From: Candidatus Helarchaeota ASGARD archaeon Hel_GB_B
GTDB taxonomy: Archaea; Asgardarchaeota; Lokiarchaeia; Helarchaeales; HEL-GB-B
Assembly: GCA_005191425.1 (NCBI GenBank)
Contig: SUPR01000028.1
Coordinates: 1 to 32,000, forward strand
DNA: 32,000 nt
Direction of reading: 5' to 3'
The notes beneath the pieces were generated by a model that was given only the letters and a program-made list of their open reading frames with translations, searched no databases and was not told the origin of the DNA. Positions 4,540 to 30,376 of the stretch are shown here, one piece after another. The number at the start of each line of letters is the position of its first letter. Positions within the stretch are counted from its first letter, which is position 1. The translations under genes were made by a program, and so were the position numbers.

Positions 4540-4953
4540 TTACTCAAATTCTAAATCTAATTCTTCTGCTACTATTTCTATTAAGGCTCTTAGTTTCATG
4601 GCTTTAGCCATTTCACCTATGATTTTTAAGTCGCCTTGCATATAAGCGCTTGCGGCATCAGTTTCTCCAGTAAACATACCTTTTGCAGTTTCTTCGTTCA
4701 TCTGTAATGTGACATCTGGATCATCAATTTCACCTTCACCTGTAGTTAATTTATGATCCTCAATCTTTATCCAAGCTTTAATTGATTCCCCGGCATCAAA
4801 CTGAATCTTAACATCATCAGAGTCTTCTAATTCATCTTGAAGGTCTTCACTGCTAGCTGCTAACTCTTCTAGTGCACCTAAAAATATAGGTAAGCTTTTT
4901 GCTTCAAAATTTCCTTCTTCAATTAATTTTTTAACTTCATCTACTTTACCCAT
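4540..4953 (-). CDS. SCP2 sterol/acyl-CoA-binding domain protein, copy 1
   Basis: PDVTLQM...GMFTGETDAASAYMQGDLKIIGEMAKAMKL is the SCP2 signature; GAGGT SD upstream. Confidence 0.9.
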   Translation of the reverse strand: MGKVDEVKKLIEEGNFEAKSLPIFLGALEELAASSEDLQDELEDSDDVKIQFDAGESIKAWIKIEDHKLTTGEGEIDDPDVTLQMNEETAKGMFTGETDAASAYMQGDLKIIGEMAKAMKLRALIEIVAEELDLEFE

Positions 4954-5499: not shown

Positions 5500-5913
5500 T
5501 TATTCTAATTCGAGATCTAATTCTTCTGCGACAATTTCGATGAGAGCTCGTAATTTCATAGCCTTGGCCATTTCACCGATAATTTTGAGATCTCCTTGCA
5601 TATAAGCGCTTGCAGCATCAGTTTCGCCAGTAAACATACCTTTACCAGTTTCTTCAGTCATTTGAAGAGTAACATCAGGATCATCAATTTCTCCTTCACC
5701 AGCAGTAAGTTTATGATCTTCTATTTTTATCCAAGCTTTAATTGTATCAATTACATCGAATTGAATTTTAACATCATCGGTGTCTTCAAGCTCATCTTGT
5801 AGATCTTCACTTGTTTCTGCTAGCTCTTGTAGTGCGCCCAAGAAGACTGGGAGATTCTTAGCTTCAAAAGCGCCATCTTCAATTAATTTTTTTACTTCAT
5901 CAATTTTACTCAT
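5500..5913 (-). CDS. SCP2 sterol/acyl-CoA-binding domain protein, copy 2
   Basis: 119/137 residues identical to copy 1 by manual alignment; GAGGT SD upstream. Confidence 0.9.
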   Translation of the reverse strand: MSKIDEVKKLIEDGAFEAKNLPVFLGALQELAETSEDLQDELEDTDDVKIQFDVIDTIKAWIKIEDHKLTAGEGEIDDPDVTLQMTEETGKGMFTGETDAASAYMQGDLKIIGEMAKAMKLRALIEIVAEELDLELE

Positions 5914-6438: not shown

Positions 6439-6852
6439 ATGGCTGTTGAAACAATAAAAACGAAGGTAGAAAGAGGAGAATTTGAAGCAAAGGATTTTGG
6501 GATATATTTAATGGCAATAAAGGAGTTGGCAATAAAAGATAACGAAGTTAGAGAAATATTAAGAGAAATGCCTGATTTTGTGATACAATTTTCGATTTTT
6601 GGGGCGATAGATGTATATTTACAATTAAAAAATGGAAATTTAGAAGTGGTAGAGGGAGTAATAGAAAACCCAGCAATAAAATTTGAGATGACAGATGTAG
6701 TAGCGACAGGGATAATAAAAAATGAAATAGATCCAATATCGGCATATTTATCTGGAGATATAAAAATAAATGGGGAAACTGTATTAGCGATGAAATTAAA
6801 GCCAATAATTGAGAAATATAATAAGATATTGGGGTTTAAAGTTATAACTTAA
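6439..6852 (+). CDS. SCP2 domain protein, divergent copy 3
   Basis: GEFEAK, IQF and IDPISAYLSGDIKINGETVLAMKL align with copies 1 and 2; also 137 aa. Confidence 0.88.
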   Translation: MAVETIKTKVERGEFEAKDFGIYLMAIKELAIKDNEVREILREMPDFVIQFSIFGAIDVYLQLKNGNLEVVEGVIENPAIKFEMTDVVATGIIKNEIDPISAYLSGDIKINGETVLAMKLKPIIEKYNKILGFKVIT

Positions 6853-7486: not shown

Positions 7487-8680
7487 ATGGAAGAAAAACC
7501 CGAAAGATTAAAGATTATGGAATATGAAGTTGAAAAAAAAGATTTTAAAGCAATATTTTCAAGTAATATAATTGAACCGATAATTAAATTTATTGAGAAG
7601 ACAAAAATATATAAAATATTTTCACGAGTACCAAAAATAGTATATTATTTTATTGGACGAGGTTTTAGTTGGGAATTTTTTGGTGAATATAAAAAAGAAA
7701 TGGTCAAAACAACAAGGAAAATTATGGGAAAATTAGTAAATAGAAAATATAGAGAAAAAACAGTTGAAGAGAGAGATTGGGTTATAAATGAAATAGTTTA
7801 CCATAATACAGTCTATATGACGGAACTATTTTTAGAAATAATTATATTATTACCATATTTTTGCCACGTGAGAGATATAGACAGATTTTTTAAAATTAAA
7901 GGACTTGATTATTTAGATAATGCATTGAAGAAAGAAAGAGGAGTAATATTAATCTCTGGGCATATTGGAAATTATTTATTTATGTGTTGTTATTTAGCAT
8001 TAAAAGGTTATAAAATAAACTTTATTTTAGAATACAGGTCATTCAGAGGTATTTTGAAATTATTAAAGAATTGTGGAATAAAGTTAATCCCAGTTCCAAG
8101 AATAGAAAACAATAAAATTAGAAACAAAATAAAAAAAATTATAGATAAAGCTTTAGATAATAATGAAATAGTAGTTATTATGCAAGATGCGGGCTTAAGA
8201 CATTATATGTTAATAGATTTTTTTGGTGAACCATGTCATACAGCAACAGGTGCTATATCTTTAGCATTAAAACATGGATCGCCGATTATACCAATTTTCA
8301 TTAGAAGTCAAGCTAAAAAACATGAGTATGAGATATCAATTTATCCTGAATTTAAGATTGAAAGAGAAAACATTAAGAACGATAAAGAAATAATTTATTA
8401 CAATACATATAGATTAAATAAAATACTTGAAGAGAAAATTAGGAGAAATATTATATATTGGAATAATTTAGCAATATATCATATAAGGAAATCGTTTAAA
8501 AAGAAGAACTTATTTGAGCAAAATTCAATTTTAGATAATTTAATCAACGAAATCCAATTTTTTAAAGATTATTTAAAATTTAGTTACGAAGTTAATAGAG
8601 ATGACGAAAAAATAGAAAAAATTTTAGATGAAGCGAATTTTGAATTTAGAAAAATGAAGGACGAACAATCTAAATCATAA
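7487..8680 (+). CDS. Lipid A lauroyl-acyltransferase (LpxL/HtrB/PatA-like) LPLAT family protein, paralog 1
   Basis: GLDYLDNALKKERGVILISGHIGNY and FFGEPCHTATGAISLALKHGSPIIPIF match family blocks. Confidence 0.82.
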   Translation: MEEKPERLKIMEYEVEKKDFKAIFSSNIIEPIIKFIEKTKIYKIFSRVPKIVYYFIGRGFSWEFFGEYKKEMVKTTRKIMGKLVNRKYREKTVEERDWVINEIVYHNTVYMTELFLEIIILLPYFCHVRDIDRFFKIKGLDYLDNALKKERGVILISGHIGNYLFMCCYLALKGYKINFILEYRSFRGILKLLKNCGIKLIPVPRIENNKIRNKIKKIIDKALDNNEIVVIMQDAGLRHYMLIDFFGEPCHTATGAISLALKHGSPIIPIFIRSQAKKHEYEISIYPEFKIERENIKNDKEIIYYNTYRLNKILEEKIRRNIIYWNNLAIYHIRKSFKKKNLFEQNSILDNLINEIQFFKDYLKFSYEVNRDDEKIEKILDEANFEFRKMKDEQSKS

Positions 8681-8803: not shown

Positions 8804-9202
8804 ATGAAAAACAAATTAATTAAAGAACAATACAAATTTTTTAAAAGAATTCCACAGGTTAGACCAATAAAAGAGGGAGAAATATTAATAAAAATAGGGA
8901 ATTTACAGTTATTACTTCAATATATTAATGATGAAATAAACATAAATAATGTTAAGGATATAAACAAAGAAGATTTCTGTGTCTTAAAGATCTCAAGGAG
9001 TTCATTTAATTATATATTTAAAGCAAAAGATATAAATGATTATTATTCAAGGTTATTAAATATTGTTTTGTATAAAAAGGATATGAAACTAGAAGTAAAT
9101 GAAAATATTAAGCCAATGCGCAATGCTTTTTTTAAAATTTTAAGTATAAATCGAGGTAAAGGTGGAAAAAACAGATATGAATTGATGGTTGGATATTTAT
9201 AA
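8804..9202 (+). CDS. Hypothetical protein (possibly a highly divergent SCP2-like fold)
   Basis: 132 aa with codon usage like its neighbours; only a weak secondary-structure resemblance to SCP2. Confidence 0.55.
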   Translation: MKNKLIKEQYKFFKRIPQVRPIKEGEILIKIGNLQLLLQYINDEININNVKDINKEDFCVLKISRSSFNYIFKAKDINDYYSRLLNIVLYKKDMKLEVNENIKPMRNAFFKILSINRGKGGKNRYELMVGYL

Positions 9203-9376: not shown

Positions 9377-10279
9377 ATGTTGCATTCAGTAATAATAATA
9401 AAAAAGGATTCCGGAATATGTCTTTTCAGTGAAAAAGAGTTAGATTTTGATTCTACATTATTTTCAGGATTTTTAACGGCGGTACAAAATTTTGCTGAAA
9501 ATTTGAAAATTGGGAGGCTAACAAGCTTTGTTACTAATGATAAGGTAGTAGTAATTTCATCGTCTGAGCAAGTGATTGCATCATTAATAGTAGATTTAGA
9601 AGATAATATCGATGATTGGTTCAGTAAAGCATATATAATTTGTGAAGAATTTGAAAAAAAATATAATTTAGAGGAATGGTCAGGGGAGATTGGAAATTTT
9701 GAGGAGTTTTCAGAAATATTAAAAGAAATATTCAAATCGGAAAAGAAAAACTTTTTAGTAGAAGTAGCTAAATGGGCCAAAAAAGAATTTGGTGGAGAAT
9801 TACAAATTAATGCCTTATTGAGTCCGGAAAAAGGGGCATCAAAATTGAAGGTGGATATATTATTAGATCGAGGAGAACTAGATATTTCAACAATATATGA
9901 CAAGCTTTCGGTTTTTCGATTTCAAGGATTAAAGAAAGACATAATATTTATTAAAGTAATTGATGGAATTGTAGGACGAGGAGAAATAAAAGACTTCATT
10001 GAATCTGTAGAACAATTTGGACAGATGGAAATTGACGAGAAAGACGAAGAAATATTTCCATATTTCCCAAAAATGATCGTAATAGTAGGTAGAGAATTCT
10101 CGGATACAGTATTCGATCTAACAGATAAATTATATAGAGTAAAAAATAAAAAGCATTTTATTCAGTCTAAAAATTTAAATTTGAAATTATTAGGCCCAAT
10201 TGGAAAGTTAGAAATTTTCAATGCATGGGTAGAATATTGGAAATGGAAAGAACCATACCCAGAGAGAATATTTAAATAG
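9377..10279 (+). CDS. Longin-domain protein fused to a C-terminal restriction-endonuclease-like (PD-(D/E)xK) fold
   Basis: N-terminal LHSVIII..DSGICLF...STLFSGFLTAVQNFAE is typical of Asgard longins. C-terminal VDILL...IIFIK...IVG..EI.DF...IVIVG..FS resembles Mrr-type nucleases. Confidence 0.7.
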   Translation: MLHSVIIIKKDSGICLFSEKELDFDSTLFSGFLTAVQNFAENLKIGRLTSFVTNDKVVVISSSEQVIASLIVDLEDNIDDWFSKAYIICEEFEKKYNLEEWSGEIGNFEEFSEILKEIFKSEKKNFLVEVAKWAKKEFGGELQINALLSPEKGASKLKVDILLDRGELDISTIYDKLSVFRFQGLKKDIIFIKVIDGIVGRGEIKDFIESVEQFGQMEIDEKDEEIFPYFPKMIVIVGREFSDTVFDLTDKLYRVKNKKHFIQSKNLNLKLLGPIGKLEIFNAWVEYWKWKEPYPERIFK

Positions 10280-10349: not shown

Positions 10350-11519
10350 TTGTCATTCAAATTAAAAGATTTAATGCCTACAAGAAAAATAATAGAGAGC
10401 GAAGAAGAAATTTTTTATATATTCAATGTAAAAATGGTAAAAAACATTATAGAAATTTTCAAATTTTTTAGATTATATTCGTTTTTCCCAAAAATACCCA
10501 AATCATTTTTAAAATTTTTAGCTCAAGGAGTAAGTCACGTAGTAATAAAAGATGAAACATACAACCAACCAATTATTAAATTCATTAAAAAGATTTTAGG
10601 GAAAAAGATTAATGAAAAATATCCTGGGAGAGAAAAATACATAATAAACAGGATTTTATTTCACAATTTTATAAAAATGTTTGAATTCTTTTTTGAAATA
10701 ATATTATTGATGCCTCATTTTAATATGTATAGACAAATTGATGAATATGTTAAAATAAAAGGACGTAATTATTTAGATAATGCGCTAAAAAAGGGTAATG
10801 GAGTAATAATAGTTTCGGATCATATCGACAATTATCTTCTGTTTCTCATGTTCTTGGCTTTATCGGGTTATAAGGTAAATATAATAATGCAAATTCAGAG
10901 TTATACAAGTATTTTAAAAATTTTAAAAGAATCAGGATTAAAAATAATACCTAGCCCACCTTCAGGAAATGAGAAATTAAGGATAAAAATAAGAAATTTA
11001 ATAGAAAAAGTATTATATAACAATGAAATTTTAATTATTTTACAAGATTTTGGGAGCCAACACTATAAAATAATGGATTTTTTTGATGAACTATGTTATA
11101 CACCAATTGGAGTAGTTTCGCTAGCCTTAAAGTATAATTCACCAATTCTTATGGCTTTTTTCAAGAGTAACAAAAAAAAGTATAGATATAAGATAACAAT
11201 TACCCCTGAATTTAAAATTGAACGCAATTCAGACAAAAAAGCAGATATAATTTTACATAATACGTATAATATAAATAAAATTATAGAAAAACACATAAAA
11301 AGAAATATAATCGATTGGATGATAATCCCAATTTATTATAATAATAGGATATACAAGATTGGTGATATTAAAGATGAAGGTTCTCTTGTTAAAAAAATAT
11401 TGAATAAAATTCAATTTTATGAAAATTTAATAAATAAAAGTTATGAACCAGGACGAGATAGTAAGAAGATTATTTTAGTTTTAAACAAAATGAAGGAAGA
11501 GTTAAAAAGACTGGAATAA
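10350..11519 (+). CDS. LpxL/HtrB/PatA-like acyltransferase, paralog 2
   Basis: GRNYLDNALKKGNGVIIVSDHIDNY and FFDELCYTPIGVVSLALKYNSPIL; co-linear with paralog 1, including the C-terminal YE..RD..KI extension. Confidence 0.82.
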   Translation: MSFKLKDLMPTRKIIESEEEIFYIFNVKMVKNIIEIFKFFRLYSFFPKIPKSFLKFLAQGVSHVVIKDETYNQPIIKFIKKILGKKINEKYPGREKYIINRILFHNFIKMFEFFFEIILLMPHFNMYRQIDEYVKIKGRNYLDNALKKGNGVIIVSDHIDNYLLFLMFLALSGYKVNIIMQIQSYTSILKILKESGLKIIPSPPSGNEKLRIKIRNLIEKVLYNNEILIILQDFGSQHYKIMDFFDELCYTPIGVVSLALKYNSPILMAFFKSNKKKYRYKITITPEFKIERNSDKKADIILHNTYNINKIIEKHIKRNIIDWMIIPIYYNNRIYKIGDIKDEGSLVKKILNKIQFYENLINKSYEPGRDSKKIILVLNKMKEELKRLE

Positions 11520-12612: not shown

Positions 12613-13770
12613 ATGAGACGTGTCGGGATTATAGCTGCTGGTGAGTCGAAATTTGGAGCACGAGTAGGAATGGAATATGAAGAGTTGTTTGTTGAAGCAT
12701 TTTTAGAAGCGATGGGACAAGTAGATAATTTAGAATCTAAAGATATTCAAGAAGCTTTTGTTGGTTCTTTAGCTTTTGGTGGTTCTCAACTTGGAAATAT
12801 GTCAGCACTTGTTGTTGACTCAGTAAATTTAATAGGAATACCTGCATCAAGAGTTGAAAATGCTTGCGGTTCAAGTGGATATGCTTTACGATATGCTATA
12901 ATGTCAATTGCTTCTGGAATAAATGATATAGTGATTGCAGGTGGAGTTGAAAAAATGCAAGATATTAGCAAAGCAACAAGGTTATATTGGTTTGGAGTTG
13001 CGGGCGACATAAAATGGGAGCGTTTATCTGGTATGACATTTCCTGGAAATTATGCTTTAATGGCGACAAGGCATATGAAAGAATTTGGTACAAAAAAGGA
13101 AGCACTCTCAAGTGTTGCTGTTAAGAATCATGATTTTGCTTCAAGAAATCCAAAAGCTCAATTTCAAAGAAAAATTACATTAGAACAAGCAATGAATGCA
13201 CCAATAGTAGCGTACCCATTAAATATTTATGATTGTTGCCCAATTACGGACGGTGCTTCTTGTGTCATTTTATGTGATTTAGAAATTGCAAAAAAATATA
13301 CAGATACACCTATTGAAATTGTTGGATTTGGTGCCGGGACAGACCATTTGGCATTATATCAAAGAGAATCAATCACAAGAATAGATGCTGCAGTGAAAGC
13401 AAGCAAAATGGCATTTAAAATGGCAAATTTGCAACCTAAAGATATAGAGGTGGCTGAAGTGCATGACTGTTTTACTATTGCAGAAATTTTAGCTTATGAA
13501 GATATTGGGTTCTGTAAAAAAGGTGATGGAGGAAAAATGATTTTAGACGGAGAAACTACTATTCATGGGAGAATTCCAGTAAATACAGGAGGAGGGTTGA
13601 AAGCGAAAGGACACCCAATCGGAGCAACAGGAACAGCTCAAATATATGAAATATTCAAACAATTAAGAGGCGAGCATGAGAATCAAGTGCATGATGCAAC
13701 AATTGGATTAACGCATAATGTAGGAGGCACGGGCTCTGCCTGTACGGTTACAATATTGAGGAGAGTATAA
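12613..13770 (+). CDS. Archaeal/SCPx-type thiolase (acetyl-CoA C-acyltransferase)
   Basis: VENAC(85)GSSG, EVHDCFTIAE, GHPIGATG and THNVGG motifs intact. Confidence 0.93.
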   Translation: MRRVGIIAAGESKFGARVGMEYEELFVEAFLEAMGQVDNLESKDIQEAFVGSLAFGGSQLGNMSALVVDSVNLIGIPASRVENACGSSGYALRYAIMSIASGINDIVIAGGVEKMQDISKATRLYWFGVAGDIKWERLSGMTFPGNYALMATRHMKEFGTKKEALSSVAVKNHDFASRNPKAQFQRKITLEQAMNAPIVAYPLNIYDCCPITDGASCVILCDLEIAKKYTDTPIEIVGFGAGTDHLALYQRESITRIDAAVKASKMAFKMANLQPKDIEVAEVHDCFTIAEILAYEDIGFCKKGDGGKMILDGETTIHGRIPVNTGGGLKAKGHPIGATGTAQIYEIFKQLRGEHENQVHDATIGLTHNVGGTGSACTVTILRRV

Positions 13771-13773
13771 AAA

Positions 13774-14802
13774 ATGAGTAATAATGTAGGGATTATAGGT
13801 TATGGTACATACATACCAAGATATAGGATTAAAAAGGAAGAATATATAAAAACATGGGGGCATTTTTCAGGAAAAATTGAAGAAAAATCAGTAATAGGAT
13901 ATGACGAAGATGTTATTACAATGGCAGTGGAAGCCGGATATAATGCTATCCACAATTCAAGGATAAATAAAAATGACTTAAAATTAATTGCTATTGGAAG
14001 TGTATCATCTCCATATAATGTCAAATCAATGGCATCTGAAGTTGCAATGGCACTAGGACTACCAATGGACATATTATTATTAGATTTTACAGAATCAGAG
14101 AAAGCAGGGACAACAGCATTATCTACGGGAATTGATATAATAGAAAATAAGGGTGGATATGGTCTTATCATAGGGTCAGATGCGCCGCTAGCAACCCCTG
14201 GAGATAGCTTGGAACATGTACAAGCTGCAGCTGCAGCTGCAATAGTTATTGGGAACAATAATAAATCCATTGCCGAAATAGTTGGTAAAAAAACGGCAAA
14301 TATTGAATACATTTCGGATAGATTTAAAAGAAATGGAACAAAAATGATGAAAGACTTAGAAATTGCACCATACTCAAATTATGCTTATAATAACACTATC
14401 AAAAAAACAGTTAACGATTTAACAGATGAGTTAAAGATCAAACTTAATGAATTTGATCATGTTTATATTCAAGGCCATGATTCAAGGCAACCCACACGTA
14501 TTTTTAAACAATTAAATAAAAATAAAATTTATTTGGATACTCTTAGAATTATTGGAGATACAGGTGCAGCATCTGCATTATTGGGTTTAAATGCAATATT
14601 ATATTACAAAGCAAAAGAAAACGACAGAATTCTAATAGTTTCATATGGTTCGGGAGCTGGAAGTGATGCACTTGGAATAAAAGTAAATAGAAAACAAGAT
14701 AAAATTAATGAAATTCCTACAATTGACCAGTATATAAATAGAAAAGAGTATATTAATTATGAAAAATATTTAAAATTTAAAGAATTAATAGATTTGGATT
14801 AA
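13774..14802 (+). CDS. HMG-CoA synthase-like protein, apparently catalytically degenerate
   Basis: Archaeal HMGS scaffold (VGIIGYGTYIPRYRI, DEDVITMAVEA, VSYGSGAGSDA), but GSVS replaces GSES, ESEKAGT replaces FACKAGT, and YIQGH replaces VFHQP. Confidence 0.85.
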   Translation: MSNNVGIIGYGTYIPRYRIKKEEYIKTWGHFSGKIEEKSVIGYDEDVITMAVEAGYNAIHNSRINKNDLKLIAIGSVSSPYNVKSMASEVAMALGLPMDILLLDFTESEKAGTTALSTGIDIIENKGGYGLIIGSDAPLATPGDSLEHVQAAAAAAIVIGNNNKSIAEIVGKKTANIEYISDRFKRNGTKMMKDLEIAPYSNYAYNNTIKKTVNDLTDELKIKLNEFDHVYIQGHDSRQPTRIFKQLNKNKIYLDTLRIIGDTGAASALLGLNAILYYKAKENDRILIVSYGSGAGSDALGIKVNRKQDKINEIPTIDQYINRKEYINYEKYLKFKELIDLD

Positions 14803-14819
14803 TAAAAGGTGAATTAAAA

Positions 14820-15242
14820 GTGGCACATGTGTCAATTCCTAAATATTGGAAAGCTTTACCGCAGAAATATAGATTAGTGGCAGGAAAATGTTCAAATTGT
14901 GGAGAGTTGAATTTTCCACCGACTACATTATGTAAAAAGTGTGGACAAGAAAATACTCAAAAACACATCGAATTAAAAGGAAAAGGTACAGTATATACAT
15001 ATACAATTATTGGAAGAGGAGGAGCTCCTCCGGAATTTGCAAAAATGCAAAAAAAATGCGGGCCATACGCAATAGCCATAGTAGAACTAGAAGAGGGACT
15101 AAAAATAAACGTACAATTAACGGATTGTGATCCTTTCAAAGATGTAAATATAGGAATGAAAGTTTCAGCAGTTTTTAGAAGAATATATGAACAAGAAAAT
15201 GTAATAAGGTACGGTCTAAAATTCAGACCAATTATTGAATAA
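14820..15242 (+). CDS. DUF35 Zn-ribbon/OB-fold protein (thiolase scaffold, acyl-CoA binding)
   Basis: CSNCG...CKKCG zinc ribbon, GTVYTYT, IVELEEG, YGLKFRP; AGGTGA SD before a GTG start. Confidence 0.93.
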   Translation: MAHVSIPKYWKALPQKYRLVAGKCSNCGELNFPPTTLCKKCGQENTQKHIELKGKGTVYTYTIIGRGGAPPEFAKMQKKCGPYAIAIVELEEGLKINVQLTDCDPFKDVNIGMKVSAVFRRIYEQENVIRYGLKFRPIIE

Positions 15243-15301: not shown

Positions 15302-16366
15302 ATGATCGAATTTAAAAAAATAAAAAAATATGCTGAATTTCATAATCCAATGTATAATTTTGAATTAAAAAAACAGAAAGTAGAGTTCAGAGAGGACCCA
15401 TTAACTGGTCAGAATTGTATAATTCCAGAGTCGCTATTAGATAAAGTAAAAATCATAATGAATAAACCATCTAAAAATATAATTCAAAATATTATCGAAA
15501 ATACCCAAGCTGGATGCCCATTTTGTCCAGATAAAATAATGACGCAAACACCAAATTTTGACGAAAAAATTATTCCAAACGGAAAAATTCAAATTGATGG
15601 AGCAATTGGATTTCCAAATATTTTCTCTTTTTTTGAACATTCTGCTGTTATTGTATTTACCGAGAAACATTTTTTAAATTTAGATGAATTTTCACCAGAT
15701 ATAATTTATTCTGCATTAAAAGTTGCAAGGGAATACACGCATTATATATTAAAAGAATATGAAAATGTTGAATGTAACTGTATTTTAGGTTGTAATTATT
15801 TATATTCGGCAGGTTCTACTATCGTACATCCGCATTTTCAACTTTATTTGTCAGAAAATAATTTTTATTATAATAAAATACTATTGATAAATAGTAAAAA
15901 GTATTTTGAAAAAAATAAAAAGAATTTTTGGGATGATTTAATTAATTCAGAAAAAAATTTAAAAGAACGTTATATAGGGGCAATTGGGACTACAGAATGG
16001 CTTGTTTCATTTGCTCCTCTAGGGGTATATGAAATCCAATGCATAGTTAAAAATAAAACATGTATTCATGAATTTACAGATAATAATCTTAAGGATATAG
16101 CTCAAGGATTATCTAATGTATTAAAATTTTATCATAAAAATAAAGTTACTTCTTTTAATTTTGCTTTATATTCTGCGCCATATAAATCTAAAGATAATTT
16201 AGATGAAATTAGAAAATACTTTTGGAGCTCTATGCGAATTATTGCTAGGCCAAATATAAGTAAAATTCCGCTAAATGATGTTTGGTTTCTCCCAAGGCTT
16301 ATATATGATAATATTTCTCCAGTTGAACCTGAGAAATTATTACAAAAAGTTCAAGATTTTTTTTAA
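15302..16366 (+). CDS. GalT-like HIT-superfamily nucleotidyltransferase (divergent)
   Basis: DPLTG, CPFCP and AGSTIVHPHFQ (HxHxQ) motifs. Confidence 0.78.
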   Translation: MIEFKKIKKYAEFHNPMYNFELKKQKVEFREDPLTGQNCIIPESLLDKVKIIMNKPSKNIIQNIIENTQAGCPFCPDKIMTQTPNFDEKIIPNGKIQIDGAIGFPNIFSFFEHSAVIVFTEKHFLNLDEFSPDIIYSALKVAREYTHYILKEYENVECNCILGCNYLYSAGSTIVHPHFQLYLSENNFYYNKILLINSKKYFEKNKKNFWDDLINSEKNLKERYIGAIGTTEWLVSFAPLGVYEIQCIVKNKTCIHEFTDNNLKDIAQGLSNVLKFYHKNKVTSFNFALYSAPYKSKDNLDEIRKYFWSSMRIIARPNISKIPLNDVWFLPRLIYDNISPVEPEKLLQKVQDFF

Positions 16367-18460: not shown

Positions 18461-19441
18461 GTGGTTGATAAGATGACGGAGTTGCGCTGGAATCCAATTC
18501 TTCAAGAATGGACAATTATAGCTGGACATAGAGCTATAAGGCCGCAAGTGCATAAAAAAGCTAATATAATGGAGAAAAGTTGTCCATTTTGCGAGGGACA
18601 AGAAGAAGTAGAGGGCGAATGGATTGTAAAATACTTACCAAATAAATACCCTTCTTTGCAAATAAAACCACCAGAACCAAGTGTTTTAGGGAATGATTTA
18701 GTACCAGTTTTACCAGCAAAAGGGGTTTGTGAGGTAATAATATACACGAAAGACCATTATAAAACTTTGGAACGACTTCCTGTTGACCATATTGTTAAAA
18801 TTATTGAATTATGGACTAATAGATATGAAGAGATTGGTAAAATTAGCGAAATTAAATATGTCTTTATATTTGAAAATACAGGAACTGAAATTGGAGTTTC
18901 CTTAGACCATCCACATGGTCAGATCTATTCTTTTCCATTTATCCCACCAAGAATTAAAGTAGAATTAAATTCATCAAAATCCTATTTTGAAAAAAATGAG
19001 AAATGCCTTTATTGTAGCATCATAGAATTCGAGATAAAAGATAAAAAAAGGATCATTTTTGAAAATGATGATTTTGTTTGTTTTATACCATTTTTTTCAC
19101 AATATGCATATGAGACATTTTTGATCCCAAAAAGACACATTCAAAGTCTTTCAGATTTAAAAGAAAATGAAATTAGAAATTTTGCTATAAGTTTAAAGCA
19201 GATTTTAAATATATATAGAAAAAGATTTCCCAATCAGCTTGATTATTTAATGCTTTTTCATCAGAAACCTACAACGGAAGAAAACTACGAATATTTTCAT
19301 TTTTATGTAGAATTTATAGTAATTCAAAGGGGAGGAGGAAAAAAGAAATATTTGGGAGGAGTTGAAAGAGGTACTGGGACTATTATAAATTCATCTAATC
19401 CAGAAAAAAATGCTAAAGAATTAAGAGAATTAAAAAATTAG
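18461..19441 (+). CDS. galT: Galactose-1-phosphate uridylyltransferase
   Basis: ELRWNP...RAIRP, CPFC, PNKYP, GVSLDHPHGQ and PEKNAKELR; ATG at 18473 is an alternative start. Confidence 0.9.
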   Translation: MVDKMTELRWNPILQEWTIIAGHRAIRPQVHKKANIMEKSCPFCEGQEEVEGEWIVKYLPNKYPSLQIKPPEPSVLGNDLVPVLPAKGVCEVIIYTKDHYKTLERLPVDHIVKIIELWTNRYEEIGKISEIKYVFIFENTGTEIGVSLDHPHGQIYSFPFIPPRIKVELNSSKSYFEKNEKCLYCSIIEFEIKDKKRIIFENDDFVCFIPFFSQYAYETFLIPKRHIQSLSDLKENEIRNFAISLKQILNIYRKRFPNQLDYLMLFHQKPTTEENYEYFHFYVEFIVIQRGGGKKKYLGGVERGTGTIINSSNPEKNAKELRELKN

Positions 19442-25044: not shown

Positions 25045-25587
25045 TTATTTTACTATTTTATTTGTCATTAAACGTGCTAGATAAATAAAAGCTTCTAATA
25101 CATTTGTGCCATCAGCGGCAGAAGTTTCAAAAAATTTTGCATTTACTTTTTCTGCCATTTCTTTTATTTCTTCAGTAGATTTTTTTCTAATTTCAGTGAG
25201 GTCAATTTTATTAGCAATTAAAACGCGGGGAATATCGCCGGAGTATTTGAGTAAGTCATCAAACCAATGTGGAATATTATTAAATGTTTCAGGTCTTGTG
25301 ACATCAAATACAAGTATAGCAGATGAAGCACCTTGATAATACAAATGGCGGACATCTTTCCATTTACTTTGTCCAGCTATGTCCCACATTAACAAGCGGA
25401 TATTATCGCCATTTTCCTGAATTTCCTTTATCACAATATTAGTGCCCAAGGTAGGTTTGTATTCTTTAATAAATTTTTGTTCTGCAAAACGATTAATTAG
25501 TGATGTTTTACCAACTGCGCCATCACCAATAACTACGACTTTGAATACATATCTATGTTTTGATTTTTCATCCATATTTATAATCAC
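25045..25587 (-). CDS. Rab-like small GTPase (Asgard type)
   Basis: G1 GDGAVGKT, G2 YKPT, G3 WDIAGQ, YYQGA, G4 NKID, G5 ETSAA; no C-terminal Cys; ATG at 25575 is an alternative start. Confidence 0.93.
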   Translation of the reverse strand: MIINMDEKSKHRYVFKVVVIGDGAVGKTSLINRFAEQKFIKEYKPTLGTNIVIKEIQENGDNIRLLMWDIAGQSKWKDVRHLYYQGASSAILVFDVTRPETFNNIPHWFDDLLKYSGDIPRVLIANKIDLTEIRKKSTEEIKEMAEKVNAKFFETSAADGTNVLEAFIYLARLMTNKIVK

Positions 25588-26183
25588 TCCTTTAGATATT
25601 CCTTTACATCAAGTTTATATTTTTTAACAATTCTAAATTCACAACATTTATCTCCCAATGCAATACATTTGTCTTCTATTACATCATATTTTTCTCCTGT
25701 TTCGGATTCTTTAATTTTACTTAAAGCACCACCGATAATATGACAAATAGGTTTTCCAGACATTGATTTAAGTCCATAACAAATTGGGCATTCATAGACG
25801 TCCACTATTTCTAAATCATCTTTCTTAATTAAATCCCATTTGCCTCCAATCCAGTTTTCCAATTTTTTAATCATTACATCTAAAGATAGCCCAAAAGGAG
25901 ATAAGTATATCAACCATTTTCGCCCTGCTTCATATAAAATGGCAGAAGTACCAAACCCAAGTAGGACAAACATAGAATTAATTAAAGAATGAAAAATATT
26001 ATAATCAATTTTCTCGTCCATTGAAATTTCATCAGGGGTGTGAGTATGAATATATTTATCTAATTTTGCATATCTCAAAACACTATTTTTACCATCTTGT
26101 CCCATTATATCATTTAATGCCGTAAGTAAAGCATAAAAAACATTCATTGATATCTCTTTTTTCTCCATTGGATTTAAAGTCAT
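25584..26183 (-). CDS. V4R-domain (Bet3/TRAPP-related fold) protein
   Basis: YECPICYG...KPICHIIGGAL...VIEDKCIALGDKCCEFRI is the V4R C/C/C pattern. Confidence 0.85.
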   Translation of the reverse strand: MTLNPMEKKEISMNVFYALLTALNDIMGQDGKNSVLRYAKLDKYIHTHTPDEISMDEKIDYNIFHSLINSMFVLLGFGTSAILYEAGRKWLIYLSPFGLSLDVMIKKLENWIGGKWDLIKKDDLEIVDVYECPICYGLKSMSGKPICHIIGGALSKIKESETGEKYDVIEDKCIALGDKCCEFRIVKKYKLDVKEYLKE

Positions 26184-26327
26184 TAGGCTAACTCCGTCAA
26201 ATATTTTTGATATTTACTTAATGCTCATTTAATTTTTAATATTTTTTCATTCCTTAAGATTTCTGGAATTAATGTTTAATAATTTAGTAGATTATTATAA
26301 AAATAATTATAAATAATCTATCTAGAA

Positions 26328-26651
26328 TTGTTTAAACATAAAAATATAAGAACGCATAATTGGACGGAATTAAAATTGGTCAAAATTTGTAATTTTTGTA
26401 AAAATAAAGCCAAACTTGAATGTCAATTTCATAAGAAAATTGCATGTAGAGATCATGCGCTTAAATGTCCTTATTGTCAAAATGTTGTATGTATAGATTG
26501 TTTTAAAGAGAAAAATTATAGACCTATTTGTCCAGTTTGTAAAAAGGAATTATTAATTTGTCCAAATTGTCTTAAAAATGGTTTGATTTCTCGTTTACAG
26601 CAAGGTACTAATGTTTGTAAAATTTGTGGTTATTCAATCTCATCTAAATAA
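26328..26651 (+). CDS. Cys/His-rich multi-zinc-finger protein
   Basis: 107 aa with CxxC, CxxH, CxxH and five further CxxC pairs; TTG start. Confidence 0.7.
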   Translation: MFKHKNIRTHNWTELKLVKICNFCKNKAKLECQFHKKIACRDHALKCPYCQNVVCIDCFKEKNYRPICPVCKKELLICPNCLKNGLISRLQQGTNVCKICGYSISSK

Positions 26652-26698
26652 AAATTAAATAGTAAAAATTCTTATTTCAATTTGAATTTATTATAAAA

Positions 26699-27655
26699 GT
26701 GATGATAATGTTAAAAATAGATCTTAGTTTGGTAAATAAGGTATTAGAGAATCTGATAAATGCATTAACATCAATTCAAGCAGCAATGATTTTCGATAAT
26801 AAGGGAAATTTATTAACATCAATGATGAATAGTACACTTGATGAAGAGGAAATTGGTGGTACTACATCATTAATTTCGTTTATTTCCGATAAAATAAAGA
26901 TCGATTTCGAGACAGGATTATTTCAAAATTCATCTTTAAGTACTGATTATAGAAAGTTTATTTTCAGACAGATTGATGACCTTATTCTTGTCCTAATTTG
27001 TGATTTGAAATCGGATTTGAACATTATAAATCCTTATTCTGATTATGTAGCTACTAAAATTTTAAAAATAAATAAAAATGTTCAAATTGACCCGTCTGTC
27101 CCGACTTTGGGAAAAATAGAAAGGCCTAAAAGAAAACCTAAGAACGAATATGTGTTTAAAATACTTATATTGGGGGATGCTGGTGTTGGTAAAACTACAA
27201 CAACTGTGCGATTTGCCCAAGCATTATTTACCTCAGAATACAAACCTACATTAGGAGTAAATATTGTAAGAAATGAGTTTTGGATGAATGATACGGATTT
27301 AATTCATTTTTCTATCTGGGACTTAGCTGGACAAGATAGGTGGGCTAGTATGAGAGGAATATATTATTCGGGTGCACAAGGTGCTTTATTATTATTTGAC
27401 ACCACAAGATTAGATTCTTTTAGAAATCTTGATAAATGGATTAAAGAAATAAATACAAATACAATTAATATACCAGTAGTGTTAGTTGGAAATAAAATAG
27501 ACCTTAAAGATTTAAGAAAAGTATCAAAAGAAGAGGGAATTAGAAAAGCCCAGGAATATGGTTATCGATATATTGAAACTTCAGCTAAAACTTCGGAAAA
27601 TATTAAGGAAACTTTTAAATTACTTGTAAAGGATATGATTAAGGGTAAAATATAA
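26699..27655 (+). CDS. Roadblock/LC7 domain fused to a Rab-like GTPase
   Basis: N-terminal IQAAMIFDNKGNLL roadblock pattern; C-terminal GDAGVGKT, YKPT, WDLAGQ, GNKID, ETSAK. Confidence 0.9.
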   Translation: MMIMLKIDLSLVNKVLENLINALTSIQAAMIFDNKGNLLTSMMNSTLDEEEIGGTTSLISFISDKIKIDFETGLFQNSSLSTDYRKFIFRQIDDLILVLICDLKSDLNIINPYSDYVATKILKINKNVQIDPSVPTLGKIERPKRKPKNEYVFKILILGDAGVGKTTTTVRFAQALFTSEYKPTLGVNIVRNEFWMNDTDLIHFSIWDLAGQDRWASMRGIYYSGAQGALLLFDTTRLDSFRNLDKWIKEINTNTINIPVVLVGNKIDLKDLRKVSKEEGIRKAQEYGYRYIETSAKTSENIKETFKLLVKDMIKGKI

Positions 27656-29935: not shown

Positions 29936-30376
29936 ATGAATAAAAAAATCGAACCAATGAATGAAATATTAAGAGATCTTGTAAAAACAACTCATATATT
30001 TCAAGCTGTAATAGTTGATCAAAATGGTTTACCAATTGCCTCGTGGAATGAAAAAAGTGGAAAAATAGAAAATGAATTAGAGAATAAAATATCAGCTATT
30101 GGTGCTAGCGTTTTTCTTTTATCAGAAAAAACTTCAGAAATTTTTGATCTAGGATTAATGGAGCAAATGATTATAAAGAATAAAAAAGGAAAAATTGTTA
30201 TTAAAAATATTAATAGCCAAGCATTAATCATTTGTGTAATGGAAAAGAAAGGTAGCGAAGCTTTAACCATGTTGAAGTTGAAAAATACGTGTGAAAAATT
30301 GAAAAAATTTGAAATATTAAATAGAAAAATTGATAATACACCTAAATCAGATATTTTCATTCCAAATATAGATTAG
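29936..30376 (+). CDS. Roadblock/LC7 (MglB-like) protein
   Basis: AVIVDQNGLPIAS...ISAIGAS...LEQMIIKNKKGKIVI...LIICV roadblock pattern. Confidence 0.9.
   Translation: MNKKIEPMNEILRDLVKTTHIFQAVIVDQNGLPIASWNEKSGKIENELENKISAIGASVFLLSEKTSEIFDLGLMEQMIIKNKKGKIVIKNINSQALIICVMEKKGSEALTMLKLKNTCEKLKKFEILNRKIDNTPKSDIFIPNID

Follow-up and report, generated by a model that had tools for sequence, protein, structure and literature searches.

In this work, we describe a cluster of three genes in a stretch of 32,000 nucleotides (hereafter the window) from the Asgard archaeon Candidatus Helarchaeota Hel_GB_B (GenBank assembly GCA_005191425.1, contig SUPR01000028.1, positions 1 to 32,000). The genes code for an SCP2-type thiolase, a homologue of 3-hydroxy-3-methylglutaryl-coenzyme A (HMG-CoA) synthase (HMGS) and a DUF35 protein, and their products probably form a thiolase complex acting on 3-ketoacyl-CoA thioesters, in which the HMGS-like subunit plays no catalytic part. 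Paralogous to the module by which archaea enter the mevalonate pathway, the trio is not that module itself and most likely works in acyl-CoA metabolism, that is, in beta-oxidation or its reverse. Its HMGS-like subunit is a member of an old pseudo-HMGS family that is widespread in archaea and bacteria.

The three open reading frames (ORFs; table 1) are arranged head to tail on the plus strand. Because the gaps between them are of only 3 and 17 nucleotides, this arrangement suggests a single transcription unit. A scan for promoters and terminators of the bacterial type, applied here to an AT-rich archaeal host, returned the same counts as shuffled sequence.

The loss of the catalytic tetrad in the HMGS-like subunit is the central observation. 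A phmmer search matched this protein to the HMGCS of Methanothermococcus thermolithotrophicus (6esq_I) with an E-value of 1.7e-46, and in the resulting alignment the motif GSES is replaced by GSVS, EFACKAGT by TESEKAGT, VFHQP by YIQGH and GNT by GDT. The initial annotation, made from the sequence of the window alone, had proposed that the catalytic triad was substituted at V77 (codon 14002-14004), E109 (14098-14100) and Q233. The alignment bears out all three substitutions, including the codon positions given for V77 and E109, places the codon of Q233 at 14470-14472 and adds a fourth substitution, that of the catalytic Asn by D262 (14557-14559). With the nucleophilic Cys, the general-base Glu, the His and the Asn all gone, the protein is predicted to be unable to make HMG-CoA by known chemistry. 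An archaeal complex carrying the substitutions E82C/C114G/H238Q/N270D makes no HMG-CoA (PMC12960953).

The fold of the enzyme has been kept. The AlphaFold2 model, for which 63 homologues were used (pLDDT 94.3), superposes best on the Methanothermococcus HMGCS (6et9_I; TM 0.92, root-mean-square deviation 1.9 A), followed by the PhlA-like subunits of CsATase, PpATase and MucABC (TM 0.89-0.90). E109 lies immediately before helix 111-126 of the model and Q233 immediately after strand 229-232, so that the two residues would occupy the places expected of the nucleophilic Cys and of the His in the HMGS fold.

The substitutions are not sequencing noise, since 27 homologues at 48-99% identity all carry the pattern x-E-Q-D at the tetrad columns. 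In this Asgard clade, S108, E109, Q233 and D262 are each present in 27 of 27 sequences and E107 in 26, while the position of V77, the former general base, is variable (S, T, V, C, I or G). H235 was considered as a substitute for the catalytic His and rejected as essential, being K or R in four of the 27 members. Across ten orthologous loci, identity to the proteins of the window ranges from 70 to 90% for the thiolase, from 69 to 86% for the DUF35 protein and from 50 to 70% for the HMGS-like protein. The last is thus the fastest-evolving of the three, as fits a subunit that has no catalysis to perform and still folds and docks.

The thiolase, in turn, retains its catalytic residues. It scores 495 bits against the NCBIfam model NF004720 (cut-off 420), and its top match in the PDB is the acetoacetyl-CoA thiolase of a methanogen (6esq_A, 301 bits); another archaeal acetyl-CoA acetyltransferase (7yvy) gives 287 bits and PhlC 136 bits. 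C85 (codon 12865-12867), the HDCF motif with H284 (13462-13464) and the GHPIGATG motif with H334 (13612-13614), all reported as intact in the initial annotation, line up with the same motifs of 6esq_A, and the catalytic motifs, HDCF included, are conserved in all ten orthologues.

The third protein matches the Pfam families zf-ChsH2 (PF12172, E 5e-10) and OB_ChsH2_C (PF01796, E 6e-17) and keeps all four cysteines of its zinc ribbon (C24, C27, C38 and C41). It is presumed to be the bridge that joins the thiolase to the HMGS-like subunit. Within the pseudo-HMGS family, HMGS-like and DUF35 domains are fused in a paralogue on contig C93 of the same genome and in the proteins P0041, P0065, P0097 and P0118, which argues for a physical association of the subunits. 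A structure prediction of the complex of all three proteins scored 0.81, and a control in which the thiolase was swapped scored equally.

The genome (3.54 Mb in 182 contigs, 94% complete) has four HMGS-like genes, three of them without the tetrad. The fourth, on contig C95, codes for an MvaS-like protein in which the four catalytic residues were matched by alignment to the MvaS of Staphylococcus aureus. It heads an operon with genes for a polyprenyl synthase, a type-2 IDI-like enzyme, isopentenyl phosphate kinase, mevalonate kinase, HMG-CoA reductase and an MVD-like decarboxylase, which includes no thiolase gene. Since an intact HMGS thus lies in a complete mevalonate operon elsewhere, this organism does not use the trio as its mevalonate entry module. 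The initial annotation had argued that the trio does not make HMG-CoA and had proposed a search of the genome for a second, intact HMGS; the C95 gene answers that search, and together with the lost tetrad it upholds the argument. The C95 protein also has a C-terminal tail of about 150 amino acids rich in Cys and His; in a BLASTP comparison this tail (P0125:400-545) had no significant similarity to the DUF35 protein (E 0.69).

Each of the three tetrad-less genes adjoins a thiolase and a DUF35 domain, making three trios in one genome. The tetrad positions read I/A/Q/D in the paralogue on contig C150 and T/T/Y/N in the fusion on C93. The genome holds seven pairs of SCP2-type thiolase and DUF35, and four of these seven thiolases have the catalytic Cys, namely the three partnered by a tetrad-less HMGS and one on contig C139. 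The other three (C96:2051-3277, C169:10610-11812 and C121:963-2306) have Pro, Gly and Gly, respectively, in place of the Cys and keep HDAF and GHP, and they recall the Cys-less aldolases of the Ltp2/Sal type.

For the phylogenetic analysis we used 120 homologues from a protein collection together with the protein of the window and its C150 and C93 paralogues, PhlA and MucA being left out. The tetrad E-C-H-N is present in 40 of the 120 homologues. The 80 that have lost it include the 27 Asgard sequences with x-E-Q-D; the remainder mostly show T-T-Q-D. In the maximum-likelihood tree, a single branch with an SH-aLRT support of 100% separates all tetrad-less sequences from the others, which points to an old paralogous family, and the Asgard clade is a group with 100% support inside the tetrad-less set. 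After removal of the four motif regions the sequences with the tetrad were still separate, with 97% support. A tree in which the Asgard clade was forced to the side of the intact enzymes was 10.3 log-likelihood units worse (p-AU 0.076).

An orthologue at 50-62% identity was present in all seven genomes of the order to which the window belongs. A search of 34 genomes from the rest of the class found none, and only the fused paralogue of the C93 type occurs there. The intact HMGS of 545 amino acids is found in the genus of the window and, outside the order, in 31 of the same 34, which makes 33 of 41 related genomes at 48-73% identity; it was not found in the five genomes of two sister families of the order. 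In three of these five, with the tetrad-less trio also present, there is instead a fusion of an intact HMGS to DUF35, with the motifs GSESK, EFACIA, FHQPN and GNTY. The fusion is 552 and 571 amino acids long at two of the loci (L037 and L043), the gene at the third (L036) being cut by the end of the contig, and it adjoins its own divergent thiolase wherever the locus extends that far. No intact HMGS was found in the other two sister-family assemblies, which are 82% and 94% complete, a result that is not evidence of absence. Two different solutions for an intact HMGS are therefore seen within one order.

The gene order thiolase, HMGS-like, DUF35 is the same at all ten orthologous loci examined. 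The most distant member of the Asgard clade, locus L019 (12739-13521), has the HMGS-like and DUF35 genes without an adjacent thiolase, and a gene of the acetoacetate decarboxylase family (PF06314) lies two genes away on the opposite strand.

From the sequences, motifs, predicted fold, paralogues and genomic contexts, we infer a heteromeric thiolase with the architecture of the archaeal thiolase/HMGCS/DUF35 complex, of which the thiolase would be the sole catalytic part. C85 would act as the nucleophile that accepts the acyl group, assisted by H334 of GHP and H284 of HDCF, and the enzyme would carry out the reversible thiolysis and Claisen condensation of 3-ketoacyl-CoA, with acetoacetyl-CoA or somewhat longer chains as probable substrates. 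The zinc-ribbon/OB-fold protein would join the thiolase and an HMGS-like dimer, whose role would be structural and might extend to forming part of a CoA-binding surface. Since thiolases are reversible, the building of acyl chains, offered as one of two options in the initial annotation, is possible as well.

The role in acyl-CoA metabolism is suggested by the operons in which other members of the family are found and by the gene content of the genome. In a Dehalococcoidia locus (L023), the tetrad-less trio lies among genes for three 3-hydroxyacyl-CoA dehydrogenases, two enoyl-CoA hydratases and an acyl-CoA dehydrogenase; on an archaeal contig (L025), it lies beside the same enzyme types and an acetyl-CoA hydrolase/transferase; and at a further locus (L024), it lies beside lysine 2,3-aminomutase and CoA-transferase A/B. 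The thiolases of all three loci keep C, HDCF and GHP. The helarchaeal genome is itself rich in acyl-CoA metabolism, with ten matches to acyl-CoA dehydrogenase and eight to enoyl-CoA hydratase (seven loci).

The window carries genes for archaeal ribosomal proteins and RNA polymerase, Ras-family GTPases and a Roadblock/LC7 protein. The closest named homologues are from Helarchaeota and Lokiarchaeota, and the sequencing runs listed as containing this DNA are metagenomes from hydrothermal vents and marine sediments, with no RNA run among them. Two Ras-family small GTPases, a V4R-domain protein and the Roadblock/LC7 protein are encoded at 25045-27655 and 29936-30376, beside a cluster of ribosomal protein genes; one of the GTPases has an N-terminal extension of 150 amino acids. 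Such genes are typical eukaryote-signature genes of Asgard archaea.

Closer to the trio, the window has two LpxL/PatA-like acyltransferase genes, with NCBIfam matches to LpxL and to PIM acyltransferase that lie under the cut-off, and three SCP2 sterol-carrier-like genes (table 1). An acyltransferase family of the lipid-A type would not be expected in an archaeon. On the other side of the trio, a GalT/HIT-like gene, possibly co-transcribed with it, codes for a protein with the motifs CPFCP and HPHFQ (HxHxQ), a weak NCBIfam match to galT (E 5e-7) and no Pfam match. This neighbourhood is shared by two related loci, L017 and L022, whose HMGS-like genes are 70% and 60% identical to that of the window, respectively: in all three, the two acyltransferases and two unmatched ORFs are followed by the trio and then by the GalT/HIT-like gene, a GPH-type transporter of the major facilitator superfamily (MFS) and a canonical GalT. 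L017 has two SCP2 genes upstream, compared with three in the window. At L022, a gap of 56 nucleotides separates the end of the second acyltransferase from the thiolase on the same strand. The acyltransferase and GalT neighbours were not seen at the more distant orthologous loci. We take the association with LpxL-like and SCP2 genes as a lead towards acyl-lipid metabolism, not as a result.

Table 1. Position of the trio, its neighbours in the window and the intact HMGS genes discussed in the text
Feature	Position	Strand	Remarks
SCP2 sterol-carrier-like gene	4540-4953	-	upstream of the acyltransferases
SCP2 sterol-carrier-like gene	5500-5913	-	upstream of the acyltransferases
SCP2 sterol-carrier-like gene	6439-6852	+	upstream of the acyltransferases
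LpxL/PatA-like acyltransferase	7487-8680	+	Pfam PF03279, E 1e-23
ORF without family match	8804-9202	+	between the two acyltransferases
ORF without family match	9377-10279	+	between the two acyltransferases
LpxL/PatA-like acyltransferase	10350-11519	+	Pfam PF03279, E 1e-16
SCP2-type (archaeal) thiolase	12613-13770	+	385 amino acids; Pfam Thiolase_N and Thiolase_C_1; catalytically intact
Pseudo-HMG-CoA synthase	13774-14802	+	342 amino acids; archaeal-type HMGS fold; full-length homologue
DUF35 protein	14820-15242	+	140 amino acids; GTG start; zinc ribbon and OB fold
GalT/HIT-like protein	15302-16366	+	354 amino acids; 59 nucleotides downstream of the trio
Canonical GalT	18461-19441		downstream of the trio
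Intact HMGS, same genome	C95:15956-17590 (L014:6954-8591, minus)		545 amino acids; MvaS-like; E/C/H/N present
Intact HMGS::DUF35 fusion, sister family	L037 (G084:C150)		archaeal-type core, intact tetrad
Intact HMGS::DUF35 fusion, sister family	L043 (G085:C7)		archaeal-type core, intact tetrad
Intact HMGS::DUF35 fusion, sister family	L036 (G086:C378)		archaeal-type core, intact tetrad

Several observations weigh against a beta-oxidation-type thiolase with an inert partner. The genes around the trio in the window are not those of beta-oxidation, being the LpxL-like acyltransferases, the SCP2 proteins, the GalT-like gene and a sugar-type MFS transporter. The conservation of the former active-site positions in the Asgard clade is stricter than a mere scaffold would need. 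An origin of this clade from intact HMGS, separate from that of the other tetrad-less sequences, is disfavoured by the tree and formally unrejected at the p-AU value given above. Finally, the trio thiolase and that on C139 are the most similar in the genome to the mevalonate thiolase of methanogens (427 and 426 bits, respectively, against NF053570), which leaves some room for a part in feeding the mevalonate pathway. According to this last explanation, the thiolase would be a housekeeping supplier of acetoacetyl-CoA and the HMGS-like subunit an assembly vestige, left after another HMGS took over. The lack of a thiolase gene in the C95 operon would fit such a supplier, as would the occurrence of the trio throughout the order, where in several genomes it stands alone like a housekeeping gene. 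We nevertheless consider it unlikely: the genome has four classical thiolases, one of which (on contig C180) reaches 608 bits on the acetyl-CoA C-acetyltransferase equivalog (cut-off 511); the sister families hold the tetrad-less trio in addition to an intact HMGS::DUF35 fusion with a thiolase of its own; the tree places the Asgard clade inside the old tetrad-less family and not beside the intact Asgard HMGS; and a complex without a working second step loses the coupling that justifies the methanogen version.

The conserved pocket formed by E107, S108, E109, Q233 and D262 might also be a new active or ligand-binding site, where the product of the thiolase would undergo a second step (such as thioester hydrolysis or some other pull reaction) or a metabolite would be sensed. 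Its positions show little or no variation in 27 sequences that share only 48-70% identity overall, and differ both from the intact family and from the other tetrad-less family, which has T at the position of the Cys; besides, the two enzymes of the archaeal complex share a CoA site (PMC12960953). The protein as a whole, however, evolves faster than both of its partners, the only nearby His (H235) and the position of V77 are not constant, and the conserved polar residues may simply stabilise a filled pocket. We also know of no thiolase-fold enzyme in which Glu replaces the Cys, and a new site seems to us doubtful, more so than the supply of mevalonate precursors. Just as doubtful is a more elaborate proposal drawn from the neighbourhood, in which the trio would form or trim acyl-CoA for a fatty-acyl lipid pathway together with the LpxL/PatA-like acyltransferases, the SCP2 carriers and the GalT-like enzyme, with the pocket of E107, E109 and D262 performing or gating the second step. 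The least credible of the alternatives is the C-acyltransferase of the PhlABC type favoured in the initial annotation, that is, a Friedel-Crafts enzyme, like PhlABC or MucABC, that would acylate a small non-CoA acceptor. The likeness holds for the three folds, the gene trio and the inactivity of the HMGS-like subunit, which is shared with PhlA and MucA, and fails for the proposed chemistry. The HDxF histidine that is lost in PhlC and MucB is kept here, the thiolase is far nearer to the archaeal enzymes than to PhlC (scores given above), and the HMGS-like protein likewise scores higher against intact HMGCS (162 bits) than against PhlA (103-129 bits). Moreover, no polyketide synthase (PKS) or nonribosomal peptide synthetase (NRPS) gene, such as a type III PKS or an NRPS-PKS, was found in a Pfam scan of the ORFs of the window or in the gene tables of the related loci. 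The preferred reading remains that of a thiolase complex whose HMGS-like subunit is non-catalytic.

Our results bear directly on annotation. The trio protein passes the HMGS equivalog model NF003274 (cut-off 244) with 267.8 bits and the tetrad-less C150 paralogue does so with 293 bits, and public records label members of the tetrad-less clade as 'hydroxymethylglutaryl-CoA synthase' (P0010, P0011, P0013, P0014 and others). This label is wrong for the tetrad-less clade, and reconstructions of lipid synthesis in Asgard archaea that count such genes as HMGS are therefore wrong as well. The link to LpxL-like and SCP2 genes in one Asgard family, with synteny in three genomes only, provides a testable candidate locus for acyl-lipid metabolism; the lipid-pathway proposal, if true, would amount to a thiolase-based route to ester-linked acyl lipids, free of acyl carrier protein, in the closest prokaryotic relatives of eukaryotes.

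Among known systems, the thiolase/HMGCS/DUF35 complex of Methanothermococcus thermolithotrophicus (6ESQ, 6ET9) gives the best match for both large subunits and has the same gene trio, thiolase motifs and DUF35 partner. It differs in its catalytic tetrad, which in the Asgard trio is fully replaced, and in that the HMGS of the Asgard genome lies elsewhere. Because the whole HMGCS tetrad is replaced, condensation would not be coupled to HMG-CoA formation in the Asgard trio. The ketothiolase/DUF35 pair Saci_1121/1120 of Sulfolobus acidocaldarius, belonging to a fatty acid synthase complex of archaea, is another relative; there, the partners that DUF35 recruits are a ketoacyl-CoA reductase and a dehydratase, and thiolase/DUF35 pairs of this kind are present in multiple copies, on average 3.8, per Asgard genome (Schmerling et al., bioRxiv 10.1101/2024.07.05.601840). 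Both systems combine an SCP2-type thiolase with a DUF35 partner on acyl-CoA; the Asgard trio has an HMGS-like partner in addition, and no reductase or dehydratase genes adjoin it. With PhlABC (PpATase, 5M3K/5MG5), CsATase (9SKH) and MucABC (9VBO), the trio has in common the three-component architecture and a non-catalytic HMGS-like subunit. The thiolase-like subunit of those enzymes has lost the HDxF histidine and gained residues that bind the acceptor, for example Glu116/Asp115 and Asp137-Thr132-His144, whereas the Asgard thiolase keeps HDCF. In the Friedel-Crafts acylases PhlC and MucB, the Cys and GHx are kept, and the loss of the HDxF histidine is the published mark by which they are told apart (PMC12960953).

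The closest parallel is PfACAT/HMGS-DUF35 of Pseudomonas fluorescens, which cleaved acetoacetyl-CoA without giving HMG-CoA or a Friedel-Crafts product (Liao et al., Nat Commun 2026, PMC12960953). It represents a third class, with HDxF kept and an HMGS unit devoid of the tetrad, found at about 1,000 bacterial loci without PKS or NRPS; the authors mined bacterial genomes only and treated the archaeal complexes as mevalonate modules (PMC12960953). By every sequence criterion, the Asgard trio fits this class of tetrad-less HMGS, intact acetyl-CoA acetyltransferase (ACAT) and DUF35: both systems have a tetrad-less HMGS unit, a thiolase with Cys, HDxF and GHx, a DUF35 partner and no secondary-metabolism neighbours. 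The trio is set apart by its archaeal host and by its separate HMGS-like and DUF35 genes, which are fused in the C93 paralogue, and its clade by an invariant Glu at the position of the Cys, where the other tetrad-less members mostly have Thr and PhlA has Gly. The trio is of a kind already known from PfACAT/HMGS-DUF35, and PhlA and MucA are other relatives that have become inactive. New are its occurrence in archaea alongside an intact module, the Asgard clade with Glu, the systematic mis-annotation, the presence of three such trios in one genome and the association, in close relatives, with SCP2 genes and LpxL-like acyltransferases. The 2026 description of the class called it a bacterial 'evolutionary intermediate' (PMC12960953). 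Our data show that it is old, widespread and also archaeal, existing beside an intact mevalonate module in up to three copies per genome, and its age, spread and copy number speak for a lasting role in its own right rather than a passing state.

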